Below, piece after piece: positions 19,340-30,383 of a stretch of DNA of 64,000 bases. Every line of letters begins with the position of its first letter. The first letter of the stretch is position 1. The DNA is from Planctomycetota bacterium (GTDB lineage: Bacteria > Planctomycetota > UBA8108 > UBA1146): positions 1 to 64,000 of the forward strand of contig JAYZBV010000071.1 of NCBI GenBank assembly GCA_036338595.1, written 5' to 3'. The notes beneath the pieces were generated by a model that saw only the letters and a list, made by a program, of their open reading frames with translations, was not told the DNA's origin and made no database searches. The translations under genes and the position numbers were made by a program.

Positions 19340-19530
19340 ATACGGTTAGTTTGTCAGGAAAGTCGGGCGCAGAAGTCTTTGCTCCCCAATACTAACAACG
19401 CTAACATTCAAGGGTATTCACACTCCCGATGTATTGTTTGTGGAGTGGAATCGCATTGAGTTTCTTGTTGAACAGTATATTGCTCAATTGTTCATACTTA
19501 TTCTTATACGGCTCATCGACTCTGCTTTGA
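19340..19530 (+). promoter_or_regulatory. AT-rich upstream region of the cohesin-dockerin gene with a TGAACA-N14-TGTTCA inverted repeat
   Basis: Clearly AT-richer than the flanks; repeat arms at 19469-19474 and 19489-19494. Confidence 0.45.
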
Positions 19531-19586
19531 GTGTCGGCGGGCTGGACGCCTCTGAGCCTTGTGCTCACATTCGGAGGGATGGTGTT

Positions 19587-21455
19587 ATGCGTCCTCTAGT
19601 TCTAGTCCTAACCACAGTAATGCTGCTGTTAATCAGCGGTATCTCGACAGCACAACAGTCATTGACCATCGGAAGCACCGACATCCTCGGTCTATCGGAG
19701 ATCACTGTCAGTGTCACAATGGATGCCACGGATGATGTTCAGGGTTTCGTGCTCGCCATCGGCTATGACGACTCCCTGGTGACAGCCACCGGGCTCGCCC
19801 CCGCGGGCCAAGCGTCCGCTGCAGAGTTGCAGGTCCCCGAAATCCTCACAGGTGGTGCGACTCTCGGAGTCGTCATGGATGCGAATCCTCCCTACGGCGG
19901 ATCTACAATTTCCTCCGGCTCGGGAATAGAGATCGCCATCCTGTCGATCACTCCAAAGGTCGTCGTCACTGCAGACACCACCACGATGCTCACCTTTGCC
20001 GATGGGACTCTCAATAGTCCAGCATTGAGCAACATGATCGTTCAGGGTGGTCTCTCTGTCGGTGCAGGCGAAGGACTGAGCCTGATCAACGGTACGCTGA
20101 CACTGGTCGAGCCTCCCCCGGCATCGATGACGATGGAGGATGGTTCAGCTCCTGCTGATGGACTCGGAACCACGGGAGATTCTAGAGTGATGCTGGATAA
20201 CAGTATCGGTGGAGTGCAGGGTTTCGTCACCGCAGTGACGCATGATCCCGCCACCGTCACCCTGGAATCGATATCCACGGGCTCTGATACAGATGCGGCG
20301 AGTGCCGAGTTCGAGATGCCAAACATGTATCCCAACGGCGGAACCCTCGGAGTAGTCATCGATTTCAATTCGCCTTTTGATGGCCAGACGATTCCGATGG
20401 GAACTGGGCTTCACATCGCAACCTACACTTACTCCTGCAATAACTCGAACATCTACGTGCTAGGTGATCCTGGTGGAGAACCCGCCGCAGAGACGAGCGC
20501 CATCGACCTCGCAGATGACACCCTGGGCGAACCTCGCCTGGATAACGTGGTCGTCGTCGCTGGTCTGTCCGTCTCGCCTCTTCTCGCTGGTGGTACCTTC
20601 ACCTGTGAGCCAGTCGGTGTACCTGCAGAGGACACGACTCTCTGGATGGAGACCGAGTTCGACGAGGGCTCCGGCAACTACGCCTACCACGGCCAGACCG
20701 GAGACCTGTGCTTCTTCTATGCCGACGAGGACGATTACATCCAGGGCTTCACCTTCACCGTCTGCTACGACTGCAATCTGACGATTCATGAGGACTCCTG
20801 GGAGTTCAACGGCTCGATCCTGGATCAGGTCGGTGTTGAGTACACCGCAGTACAGGTCGATGACGACCCCGATGACGGGGACGGCTGCGAACTGATTGTT
20901 GCGTTACTGCTCGACGCACTGCCGCCTTTCGAGGGCCAGACTCTTCCGCAGACGATGTCGACCAGCGGCAACTCCGCAGATGGTCGACTGTTGGTCGGAA
21001 AGATGCGAGTCACCGTCGATATGGATGCTGAATGTAATGAGGATCAGTTGATTGAATGGTGCAATGACATCAACGGTAACGGAAACGTCACGCTCTACAA
21101 CAACGTGGTCATCGACTTCGAATCGATCCAGACATACGCACGTAATGACTCGCTCGTGCATGTCGTGCCGGAAGAAATCTTCCAGCGTGGCGATTGCAAT
21201 AGCGACGACACCGTCGATCTTGCGGATACCGCAACGATGCTCGGGAATCAGTTCAATGGTCACCCGATTCTCTGCCCCGATGCTTGCGACTCGAATGATG
21301 ATGGTCATCTGAACATGGCGGACGCTGTCCACCTGCTCAACTGGCTCTTCAAGTTCGGAGATATACCGCCGGCACCAGGCCCCCTCGAAGACGGGCCGGA
21401 TGCGACTCAAGATGACACGCTACCAGTGTGTGACAGCGACGACACGAACTGCTAG
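19587..21455 (+). CDS. Secreted acidic protein with three cohesin-like domains and a C-terminal dockerin
   Basis: Signal peptide ..STA-QQ; repeats VQGFVLAIGYD, VQGFVTAVTHD, IQGFTFTVCYD; duplicated Ca-loop dockerin (FQRGDCNSDDTVDLAD..DACDSNDDGHLNMAD); GGAGG SD before ATG 19587. Confidence 0.8.
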   Translation: MRPLVLVLTTVMLLLISGISTAQQSLTIGSTDILGLSEITVSVTMDATDDVQGFVLAIGYDDSLVTATGLAPAGQASAAELQVPEILTGGATLGVVMDANPPYGGSTISSGSGIEIAILSITPKVVVTADTTTMLTFADGTLNSPALSNMIVQGGLSVGAGEGLSLINGTLTLVEPPPASMTMEDGSAPADGLGTTGDSRVMLDNSIGGVQGFVTAVTHDPATVTLESISTGSDTDAASAEFEMPNMYPNGGTLGVVIDFNSPFDGQTIPMGTGLHIATYTYSCNNSNIYVLGDPGGEPAAETSAIDLADDTLGEPRLDNVVVVAGLSVSPLLAGGTFTCEPVGVPAEDTTLWMETEFDEGSGNYAYHGQTGDLCFFYADEDDYIQGFTFTVCYDCNLTIHEDSWEFNGSILDQVGVEYTAVQVDDDPDDGDGCELIVALLLDALPPFEGQTLPQTMSTSGNSADGRLLVGKMRVTVDMDAECNEDQLIEWCNDINGNGNVTLYNNVVIDFESIQTYARNDSLVHVVPEEIFQRGDCNSDDTVDLADTATMLGNQFNGHPILCPDACDSNDDGHLNMADAVHLLNWLFKFGDIPPAPGPLEDGPDATQDDTLPVCDSDDTNC

Positions 21456-23294: not shown

Positions 23295-25340
23295 ATGAGT
23301 TCTGAAACGCCGAATATCCACATCCTGGGTCGACCTGTCACACGCATCGGAGTCATCGGCTCGGGCCAGATCGGCCCCGACATCGCCCTTCACTTCTCAA
23401 AGGTATTCACTCCGATGGGAACCTCCATCGTGGTCGTGGATATCAGCGAAGAGGCTCTGGAGCAGGGAAAGAAGAAACTCGATCGAAAAATTGACAAGGG
23501 CATCGAGTCGAGAGCCTTTCGAGCCGAGCTGGGGCAGGCGATGAAAGAAAATGTCCTCTTCACCAGTAACTACGATCAGCTCAAGGGATGTGATCTTGTC
23601 GTCGAAGCGGCCACCGAGGACAAGGATCTGAAGCGCCGCATCTTCACCCAGGTGGCAGACCTGGTTGCAGCGGAAGCGGTACTCTGCTCCAACTCATCTC
23701 ATCTGGAGCCCGATGTCATCTTCGAAGGGGTATCTGATCCTGCTCGAACGATGGTCGTCCACTACTTCTTCCCTGCGGAGCGCAATCCGATAGTGGAGAT
23801 CGTCCCCGGAGCGGATACCTCCGAGGGGCTGGTTGCCGACATGATGGGATTCTACGAGGCGATCGGAAAGGTGCCGATTCAGGTCAAGAGCCGCTATGGC
23901 TATGCGCTCGATCCCGTCTTCGAGGGAATGTTTCTCGCCTCCGCATTGATGGTGGAAGAAGGAATCGCCAGTTGTAAGGAAGTGGACCACGTCGCCTGTG
24001 ATGTGCTCGGATACACGGTCGGACCCTTCACTGCCATGAATCTCACGGGAGGCAACCCGATCACCGCAGTGGGTCTCGACAACTACAACAAGAAGATCAA
24101 CGGTTGGTACCGTACACCGGAAATACTCCGCAGAGCGGTGGCTGACGAGAGCTCCTGGGAAGTCCCTGCCAGGGGGGAGTCCATCGACGTTCCCGCTGAA
24201 ACCTATGCGCAGGTCAGGGATTCCTTGCTCGGAGCGTACTTTGGCATCGTCGGCGAGATCGTGGATAGCGGCATCTCCTGCATCGACGACATGGATATGG
24301 CAGTGGAGACCGCGCTCGATGTGAAGGCTCCTTTTCGCCTGATGAACTCGATCGGCGTCGACAAGGCGCTCCACCTGGTCGAGAAGTATGCCGAGCATCA
24401 CTCCGGCTTCCCGGTTCCACAGTGCATCCAGGATCAGGCTCGAAAGGGAGCACCCTTCGATATCGCACTGGTCCTCCGACATGACAACGACGGCATCGCA
24501 CACATCACGATTCGGCGTCCAAAGCAACTCAACGCCCTCAACAATGACTCCTTCGACCAGATCGAGCGCCACTTCCAGGACATCGAATCCGACAGCAGCA
24601 TCGATGGCGTTGTGCTCTCCGGCTTCGGAATCAAGGCCTTTGTCTCCGGCGCTGATGTTCCCTTTCTCGCCAATATCGATTCGATCGCCATGGGTGAAGA
24701 GACCTCTCGCGGGTCACAGAAATCGATCCAGACCATCGAGGACTGCACAAAACCAGTGGTCTGCGCCCTCAATGGACTCGCATTTGGTGGTGGCAACGAG
24801 ATCGCCATGGCCTGTAACGCACGAATAGCACGCACAGGCCAGCGCGTGCTCGTCGGTCAACCGGAGGTCAATCTCGGAATCATTCCCGGAGCCGGTGGTA
24901 CCCAGCGGCTACCTCGCTGGATCGGCGTCGAAAAGGCTGCCGAATTGATGCGAACAGGGCGCCCCGTCTCTTCCTCCGAAGCGCTCGCCATCGGGCTGAT
25001 CGTGGAGGAGGTGGCTGGAGATCCTCGAGACCTCCGTGCCCGTGCGGTCGAGCTGATCAGGGCCTACCTGTCAGGCGACGAACCACTCCCGATGATTCCA
25101 ACGGGACCGATCGAAACCCCCGATTCGTTGCCCGAAGTCGACCTCGGACACCTGAGCAGAAGCGTCGATGAGATCCTGCAGAAGGCGATTGTCGAGGGAT
25201 GTCGGCTGCCTCTGGCGGAAGGAATCGCTCTGGAAGCGCGTTATTTTGGCGAAGTCTGCGGAACTCAGGACATGCGGATCGGAGTCGCCAACTTCCTCGA
25301 AAATGGACCGAGAACCCCTGCCAGATTCGTTCACGCCTAG
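23295..25340 (+). CDS. Bifunctional 3-hydroxyacyl-CoA dehydrogenase (N-terminal) / enoyl-CoA hydratase (C-terminal)
   Basis: GSGQIG, VVEAATED, SNSS in the N-terminal half; LNALN, AFVSGAD, AFGGGNE, GQPEVNLGIIPGAGGTQRL in the C-terminal half. Confidence 0.92.
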   Translation: MSSETPNIHILGRPVTRIGVIGSGQIGPDIALHFSKVFTPMGTSIVVVDISEEALEQGKKKLDRKIDKGIESRAFRAELGQAMKENVLFTSNYDQLKGCDLVVEAATEDKDLKRRIFTQVADLVAAEAVLCSNSSHLEPDVIFEGVSDPARTMVVHYFFPAERNPIVEIVPGADTSEGLVADMMGFYEAIGKVPIQVKSRYGYALDPVFEGMFLASALMVEEGIASCKEVDHVACDVLGYTVGPFTAMNLTGGNPITAVGLDNYNKKINGWYRTPEILRRAVADESSWEVPARGESIDVPAETYAQVRDSLLGAYFGIVGEIVDSGISCIDDMDMAVETALDVKAPFRLMNSIGVDKALHLVEKYAEHHSGFPVPQCIQDQARKGAPFDIALVLRHDNDGIAHITIRRPKQLNALNNDSFDQIERHFQDIESDSSIDGVVLSGFGIKAFVSGADVPFLANIDSIAMGEETSRGSQKSIQTIEDCTKPVVCALNGLAFGGGNEIAMACNARIARTGQRVLVGQPEVNLGIIPGAGGTQRLPRWIGVEKAAELMRTGRPVSSSEALAIGLIVEEVAGDPRDLRARAVELIRAYLSGDEPLPMIPTGPIETPDSLPEVDLGHLSRSVDEILQKAIVEGCRLPLAEGIALEARYFGEVCGTQDMRIGVANFLENGPRTPARFVHA

Positions 25341-25369
25341 TGTAAGTATCCAATATCAAGATACTTACA
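25341..25369. promoter_or_regulatory. Perfect AT-rich palindrome TGTAAGTATC-N9-GATACTTACA, candidate protein-binding site
   Basis: 10-bp perfect arms directly after the stop at 25340 and about 325 bp upstream of the histone gene; no U-tract. Confidence 0.55.
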
Positions 25370-25694
25370 ATCTGATACCCGGCTCCAGGGATCGAACCCG
25401 TGGCAATTTCCGCAACGACCGAGATGGGCCGGAAAAGGTGGATACCCCTAGAATTCGGGACTCGCTAGGGAATTTACTGCTTCCCCATCGGGTCAGAAGG
25501 TGGCTATCCTTCGGGCAGTGACATTTGAGCCCCTTGCCTGCACCGTGGCGGGCTTCATGCCGAGGGGACCAGATTCAGGGCGCTGGCTGGATAATGCGGG
25601 AATCCAGGAAGCCAGCATTTGTATTTGCAACGATCAGAAAACCCTCGGAGCGCGATCCTGGCAAGGGTCGTATCGGGGTCAGAAAGGGGATTTC

Positions 25695-25886
25695 ATGTCC
25701 AATCAACGCGAGATGCTGCTCGTCGGGAGCAAGGCAAAGGCAGCGCTCAAGCAGCACGATGTGAACGTCGGAGGCGATGCCCTCGACGGTCTCAACGAGA
25801 TCCTGCACCAGTGCATCGAGCAGGCCGCCAAGCGAGCCAGCCAGAACGGACGCAAGACCGTTCGTTCCCACGACTTCATCTGCTAG
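25695..25886 (+). CDS. Bacterial histone (single histone-fold protein, 63 aa)
   Basis: MSNQREMLLVGSKAKAALKQHDVNVGGDALDGLNEILHQCIEQAAKRASQNGRKTVRSHDFIC: LLVxSK helix 1, long helix 2, RAxxxGRKTV loop, R53-D60 clamp; AAAGGGGA SD before ATG 25695. Confidence 0.88.
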   Translation: MSNQREMLLVGSKAKAALKQHDVNVGGDALDGLNEILHQCIEQAAKRASQNGRKTVRSHDFIC

Positions 25887-26000
25887 TCGACAAGACACGC
25901 ATGGTGTCAGATTCGTAGGCCTCGTCGCTACCAGCGCCGAGGCCTACCTTCTTTTAGCACCATGGGTGCGGCGCAGCGGATACATGGGGCACATCTGCAT

Positions 26001-26038
26001 CGTGCCGTTCAGGGAGATCCGTGCCGTTCAGGGAGATC
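26001..26038. repeat. Perfect 19-bp tandem duplication (CGTGCCGTTCAGGGAGATC x2)
   Basis: Units at 26001-26019 and 26020-26038, between two convergent stop codons. Confidence 0.9.
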
Positions 26039-26045
26039 CTGGAAC

Positions 26046-29000
26046 CTAGTCTGATTTATCCCGGTCCGCTTCGAAGTCTTCCTTGCGGATTTCATGGCGT
26101 TTGAGAAGGTTTGATAGTTGAGGTCGATGGATCCCCAGAGCCTCCGCAGCTCGAGTGATGTTTCCACCACTTCTGAATAGTTCTGCAATGATGTAGCGCC
26201 GCTCCAGCGCTGCCTTCGCCTCCTTGAGGGTCAGCTCACCCGAGGTCAACCGTGCCACTTCCTGATCGAGGTCAGGCTTCTGGGAGGAACGAAAGAGATC
26301 GACTCGACCACTTGTGAGTTCCGTGATCTCGACCGAGCCGACAGAGTACCAGTGCGGCAATACACTGACGGGGACTTCTACCGGCAATCCGAATTCTTCA
26401 CGAAGGTCATGAAGGGCATGCTGAAGATCCCTGCTCTTCTTGCGAAGATCATCTTCCCCTGGCCCGATCATCACGCAAACCAGGTGATCGCCTCCAGTGT
26501 AATAGACGCCTGATATCGGCTGCAGGATTTGAAGTAACCGGTTCACAATGTTTTCGTCTTCACGTTCTCTGAGCAAGATATCAAAACCTGGCAGACTCAC
26601 TTCCAGAAAGCCCAGCGGCTCCTTTTCTCTGTGGTGGCGCGACAGGAAGTAATCGATGTCTGCATCAAAAGCAGCCAGCGACCCGATCTCGCTCTGCTGG
26701 TACTCGAGCATCTGCGCATTTTTGGACAGTGCTACCAGCTGACCCTGGGCCATCGAGAGTAATCTCTCGACCTCCTCAACATCCCGATCCTGGAACGGGT
26801 TCCCTGCTGTGGGACGTTCCAGCACCAGTGCTGCCGAGAGCATTCCCTGAGCCGAGAACGGGATCGCCAGCAGGCTCCTACCTCTCACCGAATCACCCTG
26901 CGTGTGAGTAGAGATCCATTCATCCCAGGTCTGGGACCCACTTCGCATCGGCATCGAGCGTTCGATGCACTCCTGGGCCAGAGCACCGAGCACCTGCGAA
27001 GGTGGCAGCCAGTCCTCGGCGAGTCCCATGTCTATGTCGGCGAGGCTTTGCCACCGTCGCCGCCGTCTTGCCGCGATGAAACCGCGAGGACTGGGGACCA
27101 ATCTCCGGCATTGCTCCAGCAAGCCTTCAAGGAACGAGCGAAGTTCATCTCGTTTTCCAAGTTCCGAGATGGCACCGGCAACGGCAGCAAGTCGATCCTG
27201 ATCGAGAGAGCCGCCGGAGCGTGTCCCTGTTTCAGGATCAGCGTCGGGGACAGAATACGGCCCCGACCCGGTCACAGCCGGCGGCGGGTAATCTGATTCG
27301 CGGCGAAATCGTTGAAGGTCTGCAAAGAAGTTCTTTCGCCTGCGATCATCCAGATACACGACTCGCATATCTTCTGGCAGTCGTGTAGAGATTCTCTCGA
27401 TGATGGCAGCAGCTCGATCGTAGTTGACCCTTGCGCCCTGAAAATCGTGGGATCCTTGCTCGACCCTGGCTATGGCATAATTGATCTGCCACTGGAGCGG
27501 CAGCAAGGAATCTGCGCTGATCATCTGGAGAGCTTTCTTGTAGTACTCGAGAGATTTTTGCTGACCGTCTTCATTACGCTGGCGGCTGATGGCCCCCTTG
27601 ACCAGCAACCCTCGGACGATCAGGGGTACCGACTGCAAGGACTCTGCGATGAGCAGTCCGCGGCTGACGAACTTCAGTGCCTCCTCGAAAGCTTCTCGTT
27701 CGGTGCCGAGCTGAGCGCGATCGAACAAGCTGGCGGCAGCGACCCGATCCAGCCCCTGCTTCTGTGCAAGATCGAAGGATTTCTTCAACTCTCGATCCGC
27801 GGACTTCCAGTCTCCCCGCAACAGCGCCAGATTGCCCTGAAGCCTGTGCCCCTCTGCCTGGTACCGTGGCAACTCAAATTCCTGGGTCAAGATGAGGATC
27901 TGGCGAGCCAGGTTCTCGACCTGCTTCCTCTCTCCGAGCGCGAACCAGGCCCAGCCCAGGTGCAGGAACGAGCGCACGATCCCCTCTGTATTTCCAAACT
28001 TCTCACTGTTGGAGATGCTGCGCTTGAAGAAACGGATCGCCCTCCCGTAGTCTCCGGAGTGGGCGTGCAGACTTCCGATGGAGTTCAGGGTAGGAGAAAT
28101 CTGATGGCTGTCTCCGATGCGCTCGCGAAGAGTCAAACAGCGGCGAAAATGCTCGAGGCTTCGCGAGAAATCGCCACTATTTCGATACACCTTGCCGAGC
28201 AATTCATAGGTGGCAGCCAGAGCCCTCACATCCTGCGAGCTGTCGACAACCTCCAGCGCCCTGAACAGGTAGCGCGCAGCTCTGAAGTGCTTGCCCCGAT
28301 CGTAATAGACCCTTCCGATGGTGCGCAGCACCGATCCCAGCGCCACCGGGTCCTGTGATCGTTCGACCCTTTCTAGCAGTGTCTGGTAACTGTTGAGTGC
28401 CGCTGCAGAGTCTCCACGTGCGAGATGCGTCTCTGCAAGCGTCTCCAGGATGCGGCTCGACAACTGGTCAGCTCCGGCTTGCTGTTCGAGCCCGGCCAGT
28501 TCCTTTTGCGCCCTCAGGCACAGGCTCATCGCCCTCTTGATGTCCCGGCGCTGAAGCCGGAGTTGCGCACGCAGTGAAGTCAACCGAGCGGGTGCCAACG
28601 GATCGACCTGTTCAAGATCGGTAGAACTGACCCTGTTCAGCGCTCTGATCCCCTTGAGCGGCTCCTGCATCAGCAGATAGATCTCACCGAGGAAAAGGCG
28701 TGCATCGATGCGATCGGCCGCATCGGTTGCCGGATCTTCGAGCAACATCTTGATGTGCAATTTTCCCGATTCTGGCTGGCCAGTCTCCACCTCGAGACGA
28801 GCCAGTTGCCCGAGGATCTCACTGCGCACCTCCGCATCTCCATCGGCTCCTACGAAGTCGAGCATTCTTCTCCCGATACGAATCGCAAGCGGCTCTGCGT
28901 AGGCTCCTGCGAAGTACCTCATCGCAATCAGCCCGTAAGGTATCGCCAGCATCGGCTCATCGCCGGCAGCGAGAAGTTCGTGCACCTCGAAGGCGCGCAC

Positions 29001-30383
29001 AGGGTCCTGGCTACGGGAATCCTCGGCCAGGGTCTGACCCAGTTCCTTCTGCAGATTCCTGGCAACCTCGGGACGGATCGATGATCGGATGCCTTGCATG
29101 TGGATTTCATGGCAGATGAGATACCGGATGGCACCGCGGACTTCATGGCGATCGACAAACCCGCGATCGATCAGCAACTCCAATGCCTCGGAGAGTCGCT
29201 CCTCGGATACCTGGCAGGATCGCACCAGCATCGCCGCCTGAATCGGCCTGCGTAACATTGCCAGGTGCTCCAGCACTCGACGCTCGAGCGGTGGCAACGA
29301 TGCAACCCTGCGGTCGACGAGGACCAGTGGAAGCTCTGCCCCTCTGGAACTGGCCAGCAATGCCTCGACACTCTCTGCCTCGAGCGGAGAGGCCACTCCA
29401 CCTTCCTGAAGTAACCGACACATCTCCAGCACCAGGAGTGGGTTTCCATCACAAGCCTCGGCCATCATCTCGGCGAGTCGAGCATCCGGTTCCCTGCCGA
29501 GTTGCTCGCAGACCAATCCACTGACTTCTTCCACCGAAAGGGCTGGCAGTTCCACGGTTCGGCAAAACGGCTGCCCGGACAGTGCCTCCAGCTCCTCCGG
29601 AGCCGCATCGCTGCAGTGGTCTCCGATCACCAGCAACCGACCTCGAGCGTGCGACGGGGGCGGCTGGATGCCCTCCTGATTCTCGACCAGGGAACTGGCA
29701 AATTCCCCCGATCGACCCTCTCGAGCACGGATCTGTTTCCAGTCTCGAGAGCCACTCTTCGAATCGTCGCTCTCCGGACCCTGGACCGTCTCTCTGGAGA
29801 GGGCTGAATTCCGTGCCAGGTATTCGATGAACTCGATCGTGCCCGGATCACTGCGGTGAAGATCATGGAGGACCAGCACCAATGTGCGCTCGCTGGCCAG
29901 TTCCCAGAGGATTCCCGTCAGCGCCTGATGAAACTGGATCCGTCCACTCCAACCCGACAGTGGCTCGCGCTGCTGGCCTCGCTCCACCTCCGACTGGAGT
30001 TCAGGGAAGACGCGAACCAGCACATGCGCATAGCGGCGCCACAGGCCACGTGTTTCGCCATGCTCGACGATGAGATCCTTGACCAGGCGAAGGATGGGCA
30101 GGAACGGGATTCCCTGACGCTCGTGGCAATGAACCCGACAACTGAGGATGGAGCCGACATCGTCCGGGGGGTCCGCCAGCACCTCTTCGATGAGGCGCGT
30201 CTTGCCGCCACCGCTGACGCCGCTGACGAGTGCCAGTGTGCACATCGCAGCACCATTTTGGTCGCCTGGATCTGGATCGCTGCCATGGTGAATCCAGGAG
30301 CGGAGGGCGTTCAAGGATCGCTGGCGCGGTGCCTGCTGAAGATCATCGTGACCCGTCTCGGCCACCGGAGTCTCTCCGTCCAT
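26046..30383 (-). CDS. STAND-type (AAA_16/MalT-like) ATPase - TPR - GAF - degenerate GGDEF-like - Fis-type HTH regulator
   Basis: Walker A GVSGGGKT (aa 55-62), Walker B LVLVLHDLH, GNPLLVLE motif, many TPRs, GAF (SLLAIPF..LVLER..PFQDRD), C-terminal ERRYIIAELFRSGGNITRAAEALGIHRPQLSNLLKRH; GAGGAG SD 7 nt upstream. Confidence 0.85.
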   Translation of the reverse strand: MDGETPVAETGHDDLQQAPRQRSLNALRSWIHHGSDPDPGDQNGAAMCTLALVSGVSGGGKTRLIEEVLADPPDDVGSILSCRVHCHERQGIPFLPILRLVKDLIVEHGETRGLWRRYAHVLVRVFPELQSEVERGQQREPLSGWSGRIQFHQALTGILWELASERTLVLVLHDLHRSDPGTIEFIEYLARNSALSRETVQGPESDDSKSGSRDWKQIRAREGRSGEFASSLVENQEGIQPPPSHARGRLLVIGDHCSDAAPEELEALSGQPFCRTVELPALSVEEVSGLVCEQLGREPDARLAEMMAEACDGNPLLVLEMCRLLQEGGVASPLEAESVEALLASSRGAELPLVLVDRRVASLPPLERRVLEHLAMLRRPIQAAMLVRSCQVSEERLSEALELLIDRGFVDRHEVRGAIRYLICHEIHMQGIRSSIRPEVARNLQKELGQTLAEDSRSQDPVRAFEVHELLAAGDEPMLAIPYGLIAMRYFAGAYAEPLAIRIGRRMLDFVGADGDAEVRSEILGQLARLEVETGQPESGKLHIKMLLEDPATDAADRIDARLFLGEIYLLMQEPLKGIRALNRVSSTDLEQVDPLAPARLTSLRAQLRLQRRDIKRAMSLCLRAQKELAGLEQQAGADQLSSRILETLAETHLARGDSAAALNSYQTLLERVERSQDPVALGSVLRTIGRVYYDRGKHFRAARYLFRALEVVDSSQDVRALAATYELLGKVYRNSGDFSRSLEHFRRCLTLRERIGDSHQISPTLNSIGSLHAHSGDYGRAIRFFKRSISNSEKFGNTEGIVRSFLHLGWAWFALGERKQVENLARQILILTQEFELPRYQAEGHRLQGNLALLRGDWKSADRELKKSFDLAQKQGLDRVAAASLFDRAQLGTEREAFEEALKFVSRGLLIAESLQSVPLIVRGLLVKGAISRQRNEDGQQKSLEYYKKALQMISADSLLPLQWQINYAIARVEQGSHDFQGARVNYDRAAAIIERISTRLPEDMRVVYLDDRRRKNFFADLQRFRRESDYPPPAVTGSGPYSVPDADPETGTRSGGSLDQDRLAAVAGAISELGKRDELRSFLEGLLEQCRRLVPSPRGFIAARRRRRWQSLADIDMGLAEDWLPPSQVLGALAQECIERSMPMRSGSQTWDEWISTHTQGDSVRGRSLLAIPFSAQGMLSAALVLERPTAGNPFQDRDVEEVERLLSMAQGQLVALSKNAQMLEYQQSEIGSLAAFDADIDYFLSRHHREKEPLGFLEVSLPGFDILLREREDENIVNRLLQILQPISGVYYTGGDHLVCVMIGPGEDDLRKKSRDLQHALHDLREEFGLPVEVPVSVLPHWYSVGSVEITELTSGRVDLFRSSQKPDLDQEVARLTSGELTLKEAKAALERRYIIAELFRSGGNITRAAEALGIHRPQLSNLLKRHEIRKEDFEADRDKSD

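Follow-up and report, generated by a model that had tools for sequence, protein, structure and literature searches.

Planctomycetota are among the main holders of face-to-face (FtF) histones (PMC11390915, PMC12701072), and the persistence of histones in this phylum has been remarked upon (PMC10627809). FtF histones conserve profile positions 48, 52, 54, 56 and 61, two of which, R48 and N52, are missing from bacterial dimer histones (PMC11390915). The tetramer face of HLp, the FtF histone of Leptospira perolatii, includes R49, S52, N53, R55, T61 and F63 (PMC12701072). In the archaeal histone HTkC, a conserved Arg45 bridges to the C-terminal carboxylate, and the R45A exchange gives a dimer (bioRxiv 10.64898/2025.12.06.692711).

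The window, a stretch of 64,000 nucleotides from an uncultured marine planctomycete, carries a histone gene preceded by a long leader (Table 1). We consider it likely that the product is a single-copy, vertically inherited α3 histone of the HLp (FtF) type, which would wrap DNA as a tetramer and would be made from a short mRNA of its own. Positions 25695-25883 translate to MSNQREMLLVGSKAKAALK...RKTVRSHDFIC (63 aa), with TAG as the next codon. These 63 codons form the 3'-terminal part of a GTG-initiated open reading frame at 25500..25886, and the earlier note had taken them for a real gene inside a mis-started frame, with its own Shine-Dalgarno (SD) sequence and ATG. This reading holds. Of 20 loci, counting the one in the window, 19 have a purine run at comparable spacing before the ATG, with locus L020 as the exception. 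Across these loci the in-frame open stretch 5' of Met7 comprises anything between 4 and 87 codons, and at locus L002, which encodes an identical protein, only 39, so the 65-codon extension is not conserved. A 128-aa product starting at GTG 25500, a codon that sits on a putative -10 box, was therefore rejected, and the 128-codon frame is by these comparisons a chance read-back. Every one of 318 candidates proved homologous at E <= 0.001, which puts the histone gene far beyond chance. Its core is under purifying selection: of 20 comparisons covering the last 57 codons, two were saturated and the 18 that could be computed all give dN/dS <= 0.11.

Table 1 Features of the histone locus, in window positions.
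Feature	Position	Strand	Remarks
Upstream neighbour, 3-hydroxyacyl-CoA dehydrogenase/enoyl-CoA hydratase fusion (FadJ/FadB-like)	23295..25340	+	conserved position
Putative -10 region TGGCTATCCT	25501..25510	+	overlapped by the start codon GTG of the long ORF
5' leader of about 180 nt, folded into the stem-loop domains P1, P2 and P3	25516..25694	+	from covariation
Leader P1	25530..25567	+	stem 25530-25535/25562-25567 stacked on hairpin 25536-25541/25548-25553
P1 loop ACCGTG	25542-25547	+	
P1 one-sided bulge	25554-25561	+	holds invariant CATGCC (25556-25561), CAUGCC in RNA
Leader P2	25582..25616	+	stems 25582-25587/25611-25616 and 25588-25592/25602-25606
Kissing-loop pseudoknot	25595-25599 with 25543-25547	+	P2 loop TGCGG can pair with P1 loop CCGTG; from covariation
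Leader P3	25643..25678	+	hairpin closing just 5' of the SD run; helices 7 and 8
SD-like run AAAGGGG	25683..25689	+	5 nt upstream of ATG 25695
Histone gene, 63 aa	25695..25886	+	α3 histone, probable FtF subfamily; no N-terminal tail
Intrinsic-terminator-like hairpin, then CTTCTTTT	25915..25955	+	arms 25915-25929 and 25933-25947
Downstream convergent neighbour, 1445-aa AAA-TPR-(GAF)-Fis HTH putative regulator	26046..30383	-	conserved position

The histone-fold searches suggested in the earlier note agree in part. The match to Pfam CBFD_NFYB_HMF stays below the cut-off (E 0.11) and DUF1931 gives none, whereas a PDB sequence search finds HLp at E 1.5e-10, HBb (Bd0055) of Bdellovibrio at 2-3e-4 and HTkC at 0.013. 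An AF2 model, for which 72 of the 120 listed proteins were aligned, has a pLDDT of 89.6, two helices (residues 11-19 and 29-50) and a third helix or turn of three residues at 58-60. Its top nine Foldseek matches are HLp, HBb and HTkC, which it fits together with an rmsd of 0.8-1.0 Å (HLp, 0.8-0.9 Å; TMq 0.84-0.86). HBb scores as high as HLp (TMq 0.85-0.88), and for this reason the modelled monomer fold fixes the α3 family and not the subfamily. The family features, namely a histone fold, a shortened α2 and an α3 of 3-4 residues (PMC11390915), are all present, as is the RD clamp RxTxxxxD (R53, T55, D60), which is invariant in 72 of 72 aligned homologs. PDB search and Foldseek thus both bear out the proposed stand-alone prokaryotic histone with truncated α3, RKTV loop and R-x6-D clamp; helix α2 is short, and HLp replaces Bd0055/HBb as the nearest relative.

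Two other families were tried and rejected. Pseudodimeric DUF1931 histones are excluded by the length of 63 aa with a single fold and by the lack of a PF09123 match in the protein or the genome; the label 'DUF1931 domain-containing' carried by HLp and by homolog P0023 is a database name only. An archaeal nucleosomal histone (HMf/HTk type, with long α2 and full α3) is excluded by the truncated α3 and by the NCBIfam histone model NF043032, at 24.8 bits against a cut-off of 50. Among the homologs, the usual HWY of α2 is eroded in genera g1 and g5.

The oligomer class, which the earlier note held to be unreadable from sequence, can largely be read, as R48 and N52 split FtF from dimer histones and both are present. 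Residues R47, N51, R53, T55 and D60 keep the spacing of FtF profile positions 48, 52, 54, 56 and 61 and are invariant in 72 of 72 homologs. The DNA-binding lysines of α1 expected of FtF members are retained as well (K13 in 72/72, K15 in 71/72 and K19 in 67/72), and the protein is identical to HLp at four of six tetramer-face residues and seven of eleven DNA-contact residues. A four-copy model scores 0.86, compared to 0.00 for the best of three controls, with runs agreeing in at least 97% of contacts and a pLDDT of at least 87; this score is probably dominated by the dimer and may reflect memory of solved structures, and the tool's mark, attained by 20 of 30 solved pairs and 1 of 23 single chains, is calibrated on two copies only. 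Predicted contacts with the second dimer, printed for one chain, fall at residues 43, 46-47, 50-51, 53, 59 and 62 and match the HLp tetramer face. A tetramer model, as proposed in the earlier note, yields confident dimer-dimer contacts at FtF residues, for a complex whose like has already been solved; the subfamily itself is defined in print by a predicted closed toroidal tetramer.

The C-terminus does not follow the FtF pattern. The chain ends at +16 from the Arg, whereas solved and modelled FtF members end at +14, a feature of these members that lies outside the published FtF definition. Here and in all 118 homologs, of 120, whose motif is readable, the chain passes the end of HLp (the Phe after the Asp) by two or more residues, so an Arg-carboxylate bridge of the HTkC type is impossible here in the same form. 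Because of this chain end, membership of the FtF subfamily, as read from residues and model, is probable rather than certain.

The extension could instead mean that, with the bridge removed, the protein is a DNA-bending dimer like HBb, or that its tetramer is weak or DNA-dependent. HBb likewise runs past the HLp end and shares the RKT loop, and the loss of a single Arg bridge is enough to make HTkC dimeric (bioRxiv 10.64898/2025.12.06.692711). We regard this as rather unlikely, since the invariance of R47 and N51, replaced by Ser and Asp in HBb, is hard to explain without a tetramer face, and the model places residues 47, 50, 51, 53, 59 and 62 at a confident dimer-dimer contact. The searched supplements of PMC11390915 (three files) and PMC12701072 (five files) hold no class assignment for the orthologs of this protein.

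All 19 histones of the three leader-bearing genera (window 25881-25883, L001-L019) end in Cys, as FIC, FVC or FTC. A disulfide or metal role for this residue is conceivable, as the C-termini would lie near the dimer-dimer face in a ring.

On the FtF reading that we prefer, two chains would form a head-to-tail handshake dimer, by analogy with HLp and HTkC, and two dimers would close into a ring through the end of α2, loop 2 and α3 (R47, Q50, N51, R53, H59 and F61). The ring would bind the DNA backbone without sequence preference via S12, K13, K15, K19, G27, K54, T55 and R57 and would wrap roughly 60 bp of DNA. The histone would act beside the two HU/IHF proteins of the host and not replace them.

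A lesser role has also to be weighed, in which the protein has the histone fold and is a minor or specialised factor, packaging being left to HU/IHF and a Lys-rich, H1-like protein. The genome does carry two HU/IHF genes and a gene for a 139-aa Lys-rich protein. The histone itself has a low net charge of about +1.7 (pI 8.8), and that of the TMED53 ortholog is near zero; the Lys-rich tail that 57 of 117 homologous histones possess is missing from it. We consider this role very improbable: the DNA-contact lysines are retained, dN/dS is low, and in RNA run X1 the histone unit is the sole piece assembled in 13 kb, a weak point as the runs were chosen by this stretch. The 139-aa protein, encoded at L243:1560-1979 on the minus strand (G000:C37:59059-59478), consists almost entirely of Lys, Ala and Arg repeats and is presumably H1- or chlamydial Hc2-like. 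Its start resembles the Lys-rich tails of the homologous histones; in four of the homologs (P0075, P0095, P0109 and P0120) an acidic N-terminal tail (MAEWDSDGTTWDS...) replaces the Lys-rich one.

The planctomycete origin proposed in the earlier note agrees with the names of the 21 nearest named loci, of which 17 read Planctomycet*, three bacterium and one Bacillota. The locus labelled Bacillota (L023) has an identical histone and the same neighbours as the planctomycete loci; its label is probably wrong. We take the relatives TMED53 and UBA1146, both among these 21 loci, to be members of the GTDB class UBA8108. Within the order, 32 of 34 genomes yielded the histone, among them 22 of 22 high-quality ones; in the phylum, 197 of 401 genomes match the histone profile, and families such as f10 (0/24) and f18 (2/23) are nearly empty. 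The gene is single-copy in its own genome (88% complete), where the queries used found no second histone or DUF1931 protein. Among the 21 nearest loci, the FadJ-like gene lies upstream in 19 and the convergent AAA-TPR-Fis gene downstream in 20; the latter also accompanies the histone in 11 of another 12 loci from the order, and both neighbours are absent from three of three histone loci of other orders. Neighbours conserved across the order argue for vertical inheritance and against contamination.

Several other features of the window and its relatives were observed. A spaced inverted motif, TAA[GC]-N17-[GC]TTA, lies just past the FadJ-like stop codon (25343-25367), with a similar motif in relatives. 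The genome has 14 copies at spacing 17, compared to 0-5 at spacings 13-23, and the window one (chance mean 0.16); the motif is possibly a protein-binding site. An exact 19-nt tandem duplication at 26001-26038, near the 3' end of the AAA-TPR gene, is either real or an assembly slip. At a locus from another order (L115), CRISPR-like repeats (GAGTGTTCCCCACAGGCGTGGGGATGATCC) and AT-rich DNA lie upstream of a close histone homolog, and that contig is possibly mis-binned or the product of transfer. The plus strand at 19434-21455 encodes a 673-aa acidic protein with a weakly dockerin-like C-terminus (Pfam E 0.024); RNA contigs cover this gene in three of four runs, and L243:252-1070 holds a paralog-like gene.

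The earlier note linked the gene to the condensed nucleoids of planctomycetes. In the searched files of the 2023 survey, Planctopirus, Isosphaera and Pirellula are listed in the genome table and absent from the histone table, and Gemmata has no occurrence in the searched supplement files (PMC10627809). A Gemmata draft genome is described as free of histone homologs by 2012 methods (PMC3440768). As these sources give no histones for the genera in question, the link is weak and at present unsupported, and the window histone by itself leaves the condensed nucleoids of cultured Planctomycetia unexplained. The further statement that no histone from planctomycetes has been characterised stands as far as the bench is concerned, as we found no bench study of one in the literature; sequences are in print, and near orthologs were catalogued in 2023. 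By itself, the protein is one more member of a catalogued family and of modest value.

Signals flanking the gene suggest a transcription unit of its own. The sequence GG[CA]TATCCT stands 187-198 nt before the ATG in all 20 distinct leaders used and is a putative -10 box, from which we infer a transcript start near 25516-25518; a consensus sigma-70 promoter scan gave no site. Downstream, where a strong hairpin with a T-rich tail follows the gene, the fold of 25884-25965 has a z of -6.36, equalled by none of 200 shuffles, and a strict terminator scan gave no site. A small hairpin lies between the stop codon and the terminator-like hairpin (25894-25908), and one in a similar place, variable in sequence, is predicted in most of 18 folded loci. 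Twenty RNA runs contain part of the stretch, none of them half of its words. In the four runs examined, from four studies, RNA contigs span leader and gene (25563-25938, 25540-25894, 25545-25804 and 25572-25814). The contigs start within the leader at 25540-25572, the longest ends at 25938, and none crosses the inferred start or the terminator; they come from runs chosen by this stretch and indicate presence, not level, strand or ends. They point only weakly to an mRNA that is monocistronic and has a long leader.

The leader is conserved as a structure. We aligned 20 leaders with MAFFT and set a structure of 40 pairs by hand. Of 800 cells, 85.3% are paired, and 25 pairs are changed on both sides; none of 500 shuffles attains these values and slid controls give 36-53%. 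In P1, 9 of the 12 pairs of helices 2 and 3 show change on both sides, and in P2, helix 5 is paired in 98.3% of cells. The kiss between the P1 loop (CCGYR) and the P2 loop (YRCGG) is paired in 88.3% of 120 cells, with three invariant pairs and three with double changes among its six; 2 of 500 shuffles reach its count of cells with double change, and slid controls stay at or below 50.8%. These values are to be read in light of the procedure: the structure was read from the same sequences, which are non-independent kin, and the pairs of P1 and of the kiss were set by eye, which the slid controls favour. Held-out leaders are a fairer test, and two of them, L006 and L118, keep five of five core kiss pairs, L118 as CCGTA/TACGG. 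From the raw alignment, RNAalifold recovers P2 and the inner part of P3 and misses P1, whose 5' strand it pairs with the SD sequence.

In three genera, the leader model matches 22 of 23 genomes, the host's own included, each time in a single copy that lies at the histone gene; the sole leader-negative genome also lacks a histone match. Eleven other genomes of the order, 10 of them histone-bearing, give no match, nor do 55 non-leader histone loci and two HU loci (among 78 sources), and a 151-genome sample of the phylum gives only two marginal ones (24-25 bits). A scan of 80 of at least 119 pattern-matched metagenome stretches gave no full leader (best 23 bits) and no histone and is uninformative. 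Rfam gave no match on the whole window and six on 25340-26050, all weak and far below threshold, one of them on the leader and on the opposite strand. We found no description of this leader in the literature. The conserved folded leader, with loops that appear to pair, is the sole new part of this locus.

Possible variants of the leader occur in other genera. By eye, a hairpin loop of L020, from a fourth genus, contains CCCGTA, with TACGGG later on, and CATGCC is present as well; the leader model gave no match there. L103, L104 and L106, from other genera of the family, share a different leader, possibly of a second structured type, in which a CACAAT box is followed by blocks such as GCCGTCGGC and GGACGGGG-AAAYRCG. 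A conserved upstream ORF from the AUG in CAUGCC was tried and rejected, as it is in frame with the histone in only 3 of 21 loci and varies from 7 to 109 codons.

The folded leader would most likely set the stability and translation rate of the histone mRNA. A more specific proposal is a feedback switch, in which free histone or a ligand binds the domain of kissing loop and CAUGCC, the pyrimidine-rich 5' strand of P1 pairs with the ribosome-binding site, and histone synthesis tracks DNA content. Its strict association with the histone gene in the three genera, the invariant unpaired CAUGCC and the covarying kiss are consistent with such a switch. The 5' strand of P1 has an alternative partner in the SD sequence. 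For 12 of 22 leaders this pairing is better than in 95% of the control windows, at -17 kcal/mol in six; for the other 10 it is unremarkable, so that a switch is possible and no more. The histone-bearing genomes of the order in which the leader model finds nothing argue against the proposal, as do 5' hairpins that only stabilise mRNA, which also covary. In the searched text of the HLp paper, RNA binding by bacterial histones is absent, with no occurrence of the term (PMC12701072). On balance we think the feedback switch doubtful.

We place similarly little confidence in a bolder combined reading. In it, an undescribed class of cis-regulatory RNA with kissing loop and CAUGCC bulge lets the histone control its own synthesis post-transcriptionally, by RNA binding or a ligand switch, and the histone is part of a broad FtF subclade (Planctomycetota, Acidobacteriota, Bdellovibrionota, Myxococcota and others) whose rings close with no C-terminal carboxylate bridge. 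If true, this would be a bacterial counterpart of RNA-level control of histone dosage. On the preferred FtF reading, the protein offers a small, tail-less and easily expressed test case for whether FtF rings form with an extended C-terminus, subclade-wide, for the role of an FtF histone in a bacterium that keeps HU/IHF, and for the regulation of bacterial histone genes, with the covarying leader as a concrete candidate. Two points merit bench work, namely the leader with its covarying kiss and the extension of the C-terminus.

Cis-regulatory RNAs with loop-loop pairing include guanidine-II and ribosomal-protein leaders. The histone leader resembles them as the 5' leader of one gene with two loops able to pair, a resemblance of architecture only, and differs in that no Rfam family attains its gathering threshold on it.

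Among proteins, the closest catalogued relatives are the orthologs of Planctomycetia bacterium TMED53 (OUU22788.1; 79% identity) and Planctomycetes bacterium UBA1146 (87%), listed in Table S1 of PMC10627809. In the searched files of that work they appear as sequence entries, with no oligomer class, context or leader found; both share the synteny and the leader of the window (loci L037 and L035). HBb/Bd0055 of Bdellovibrio bacteriovorus (PDB 8CMP, 8FVX, 9EZZ) has the same α3 fold and RKTV loop, and its chain likewise passes the Asp-x motif. At 30% identity, however, it carries Ser and Asp in place of R47 and N51 and is a strict dimer (PMC11390915, PMC12701072). HTkC of Thermococcus kodakarensis (PDB 9F2C), an archaeal FtF histone with 32-34% identity, has the same fold (rmsd 1.0 Å) and shares the conserved Arg at the tetramer face and the RKT loop; the carboxylate that its Arg45 bridges sits two residues further out in the window histone.

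The most similar solved protein is HLp (PDB 9QT0/9QT1/9QT2; PMC12701072), an FtF α3 histone also of 63 aa, with 47-48% identity by structural alignment. The window histone differs from it in a C-terminus extended by two residues beyond the Phe, to a final Cys, in loop 2 (NGRKT instead of NKRTT) and in its structured leader. Its neighbours are FadJ-like and AAA-TPR regulator genes, in contrast to SMC and MAP at HLp, and its host keeps two HU/IHF genes, whereas two Leptospira species are reported without HU (PMC12701072). The two histones share the R/N/R tetramer residues, the RD clamp and the S-K-x-K of α1. HLp is likewise single-copy, and according to PMC12701072 its gene, too, has been mis-annotated with a longer start.
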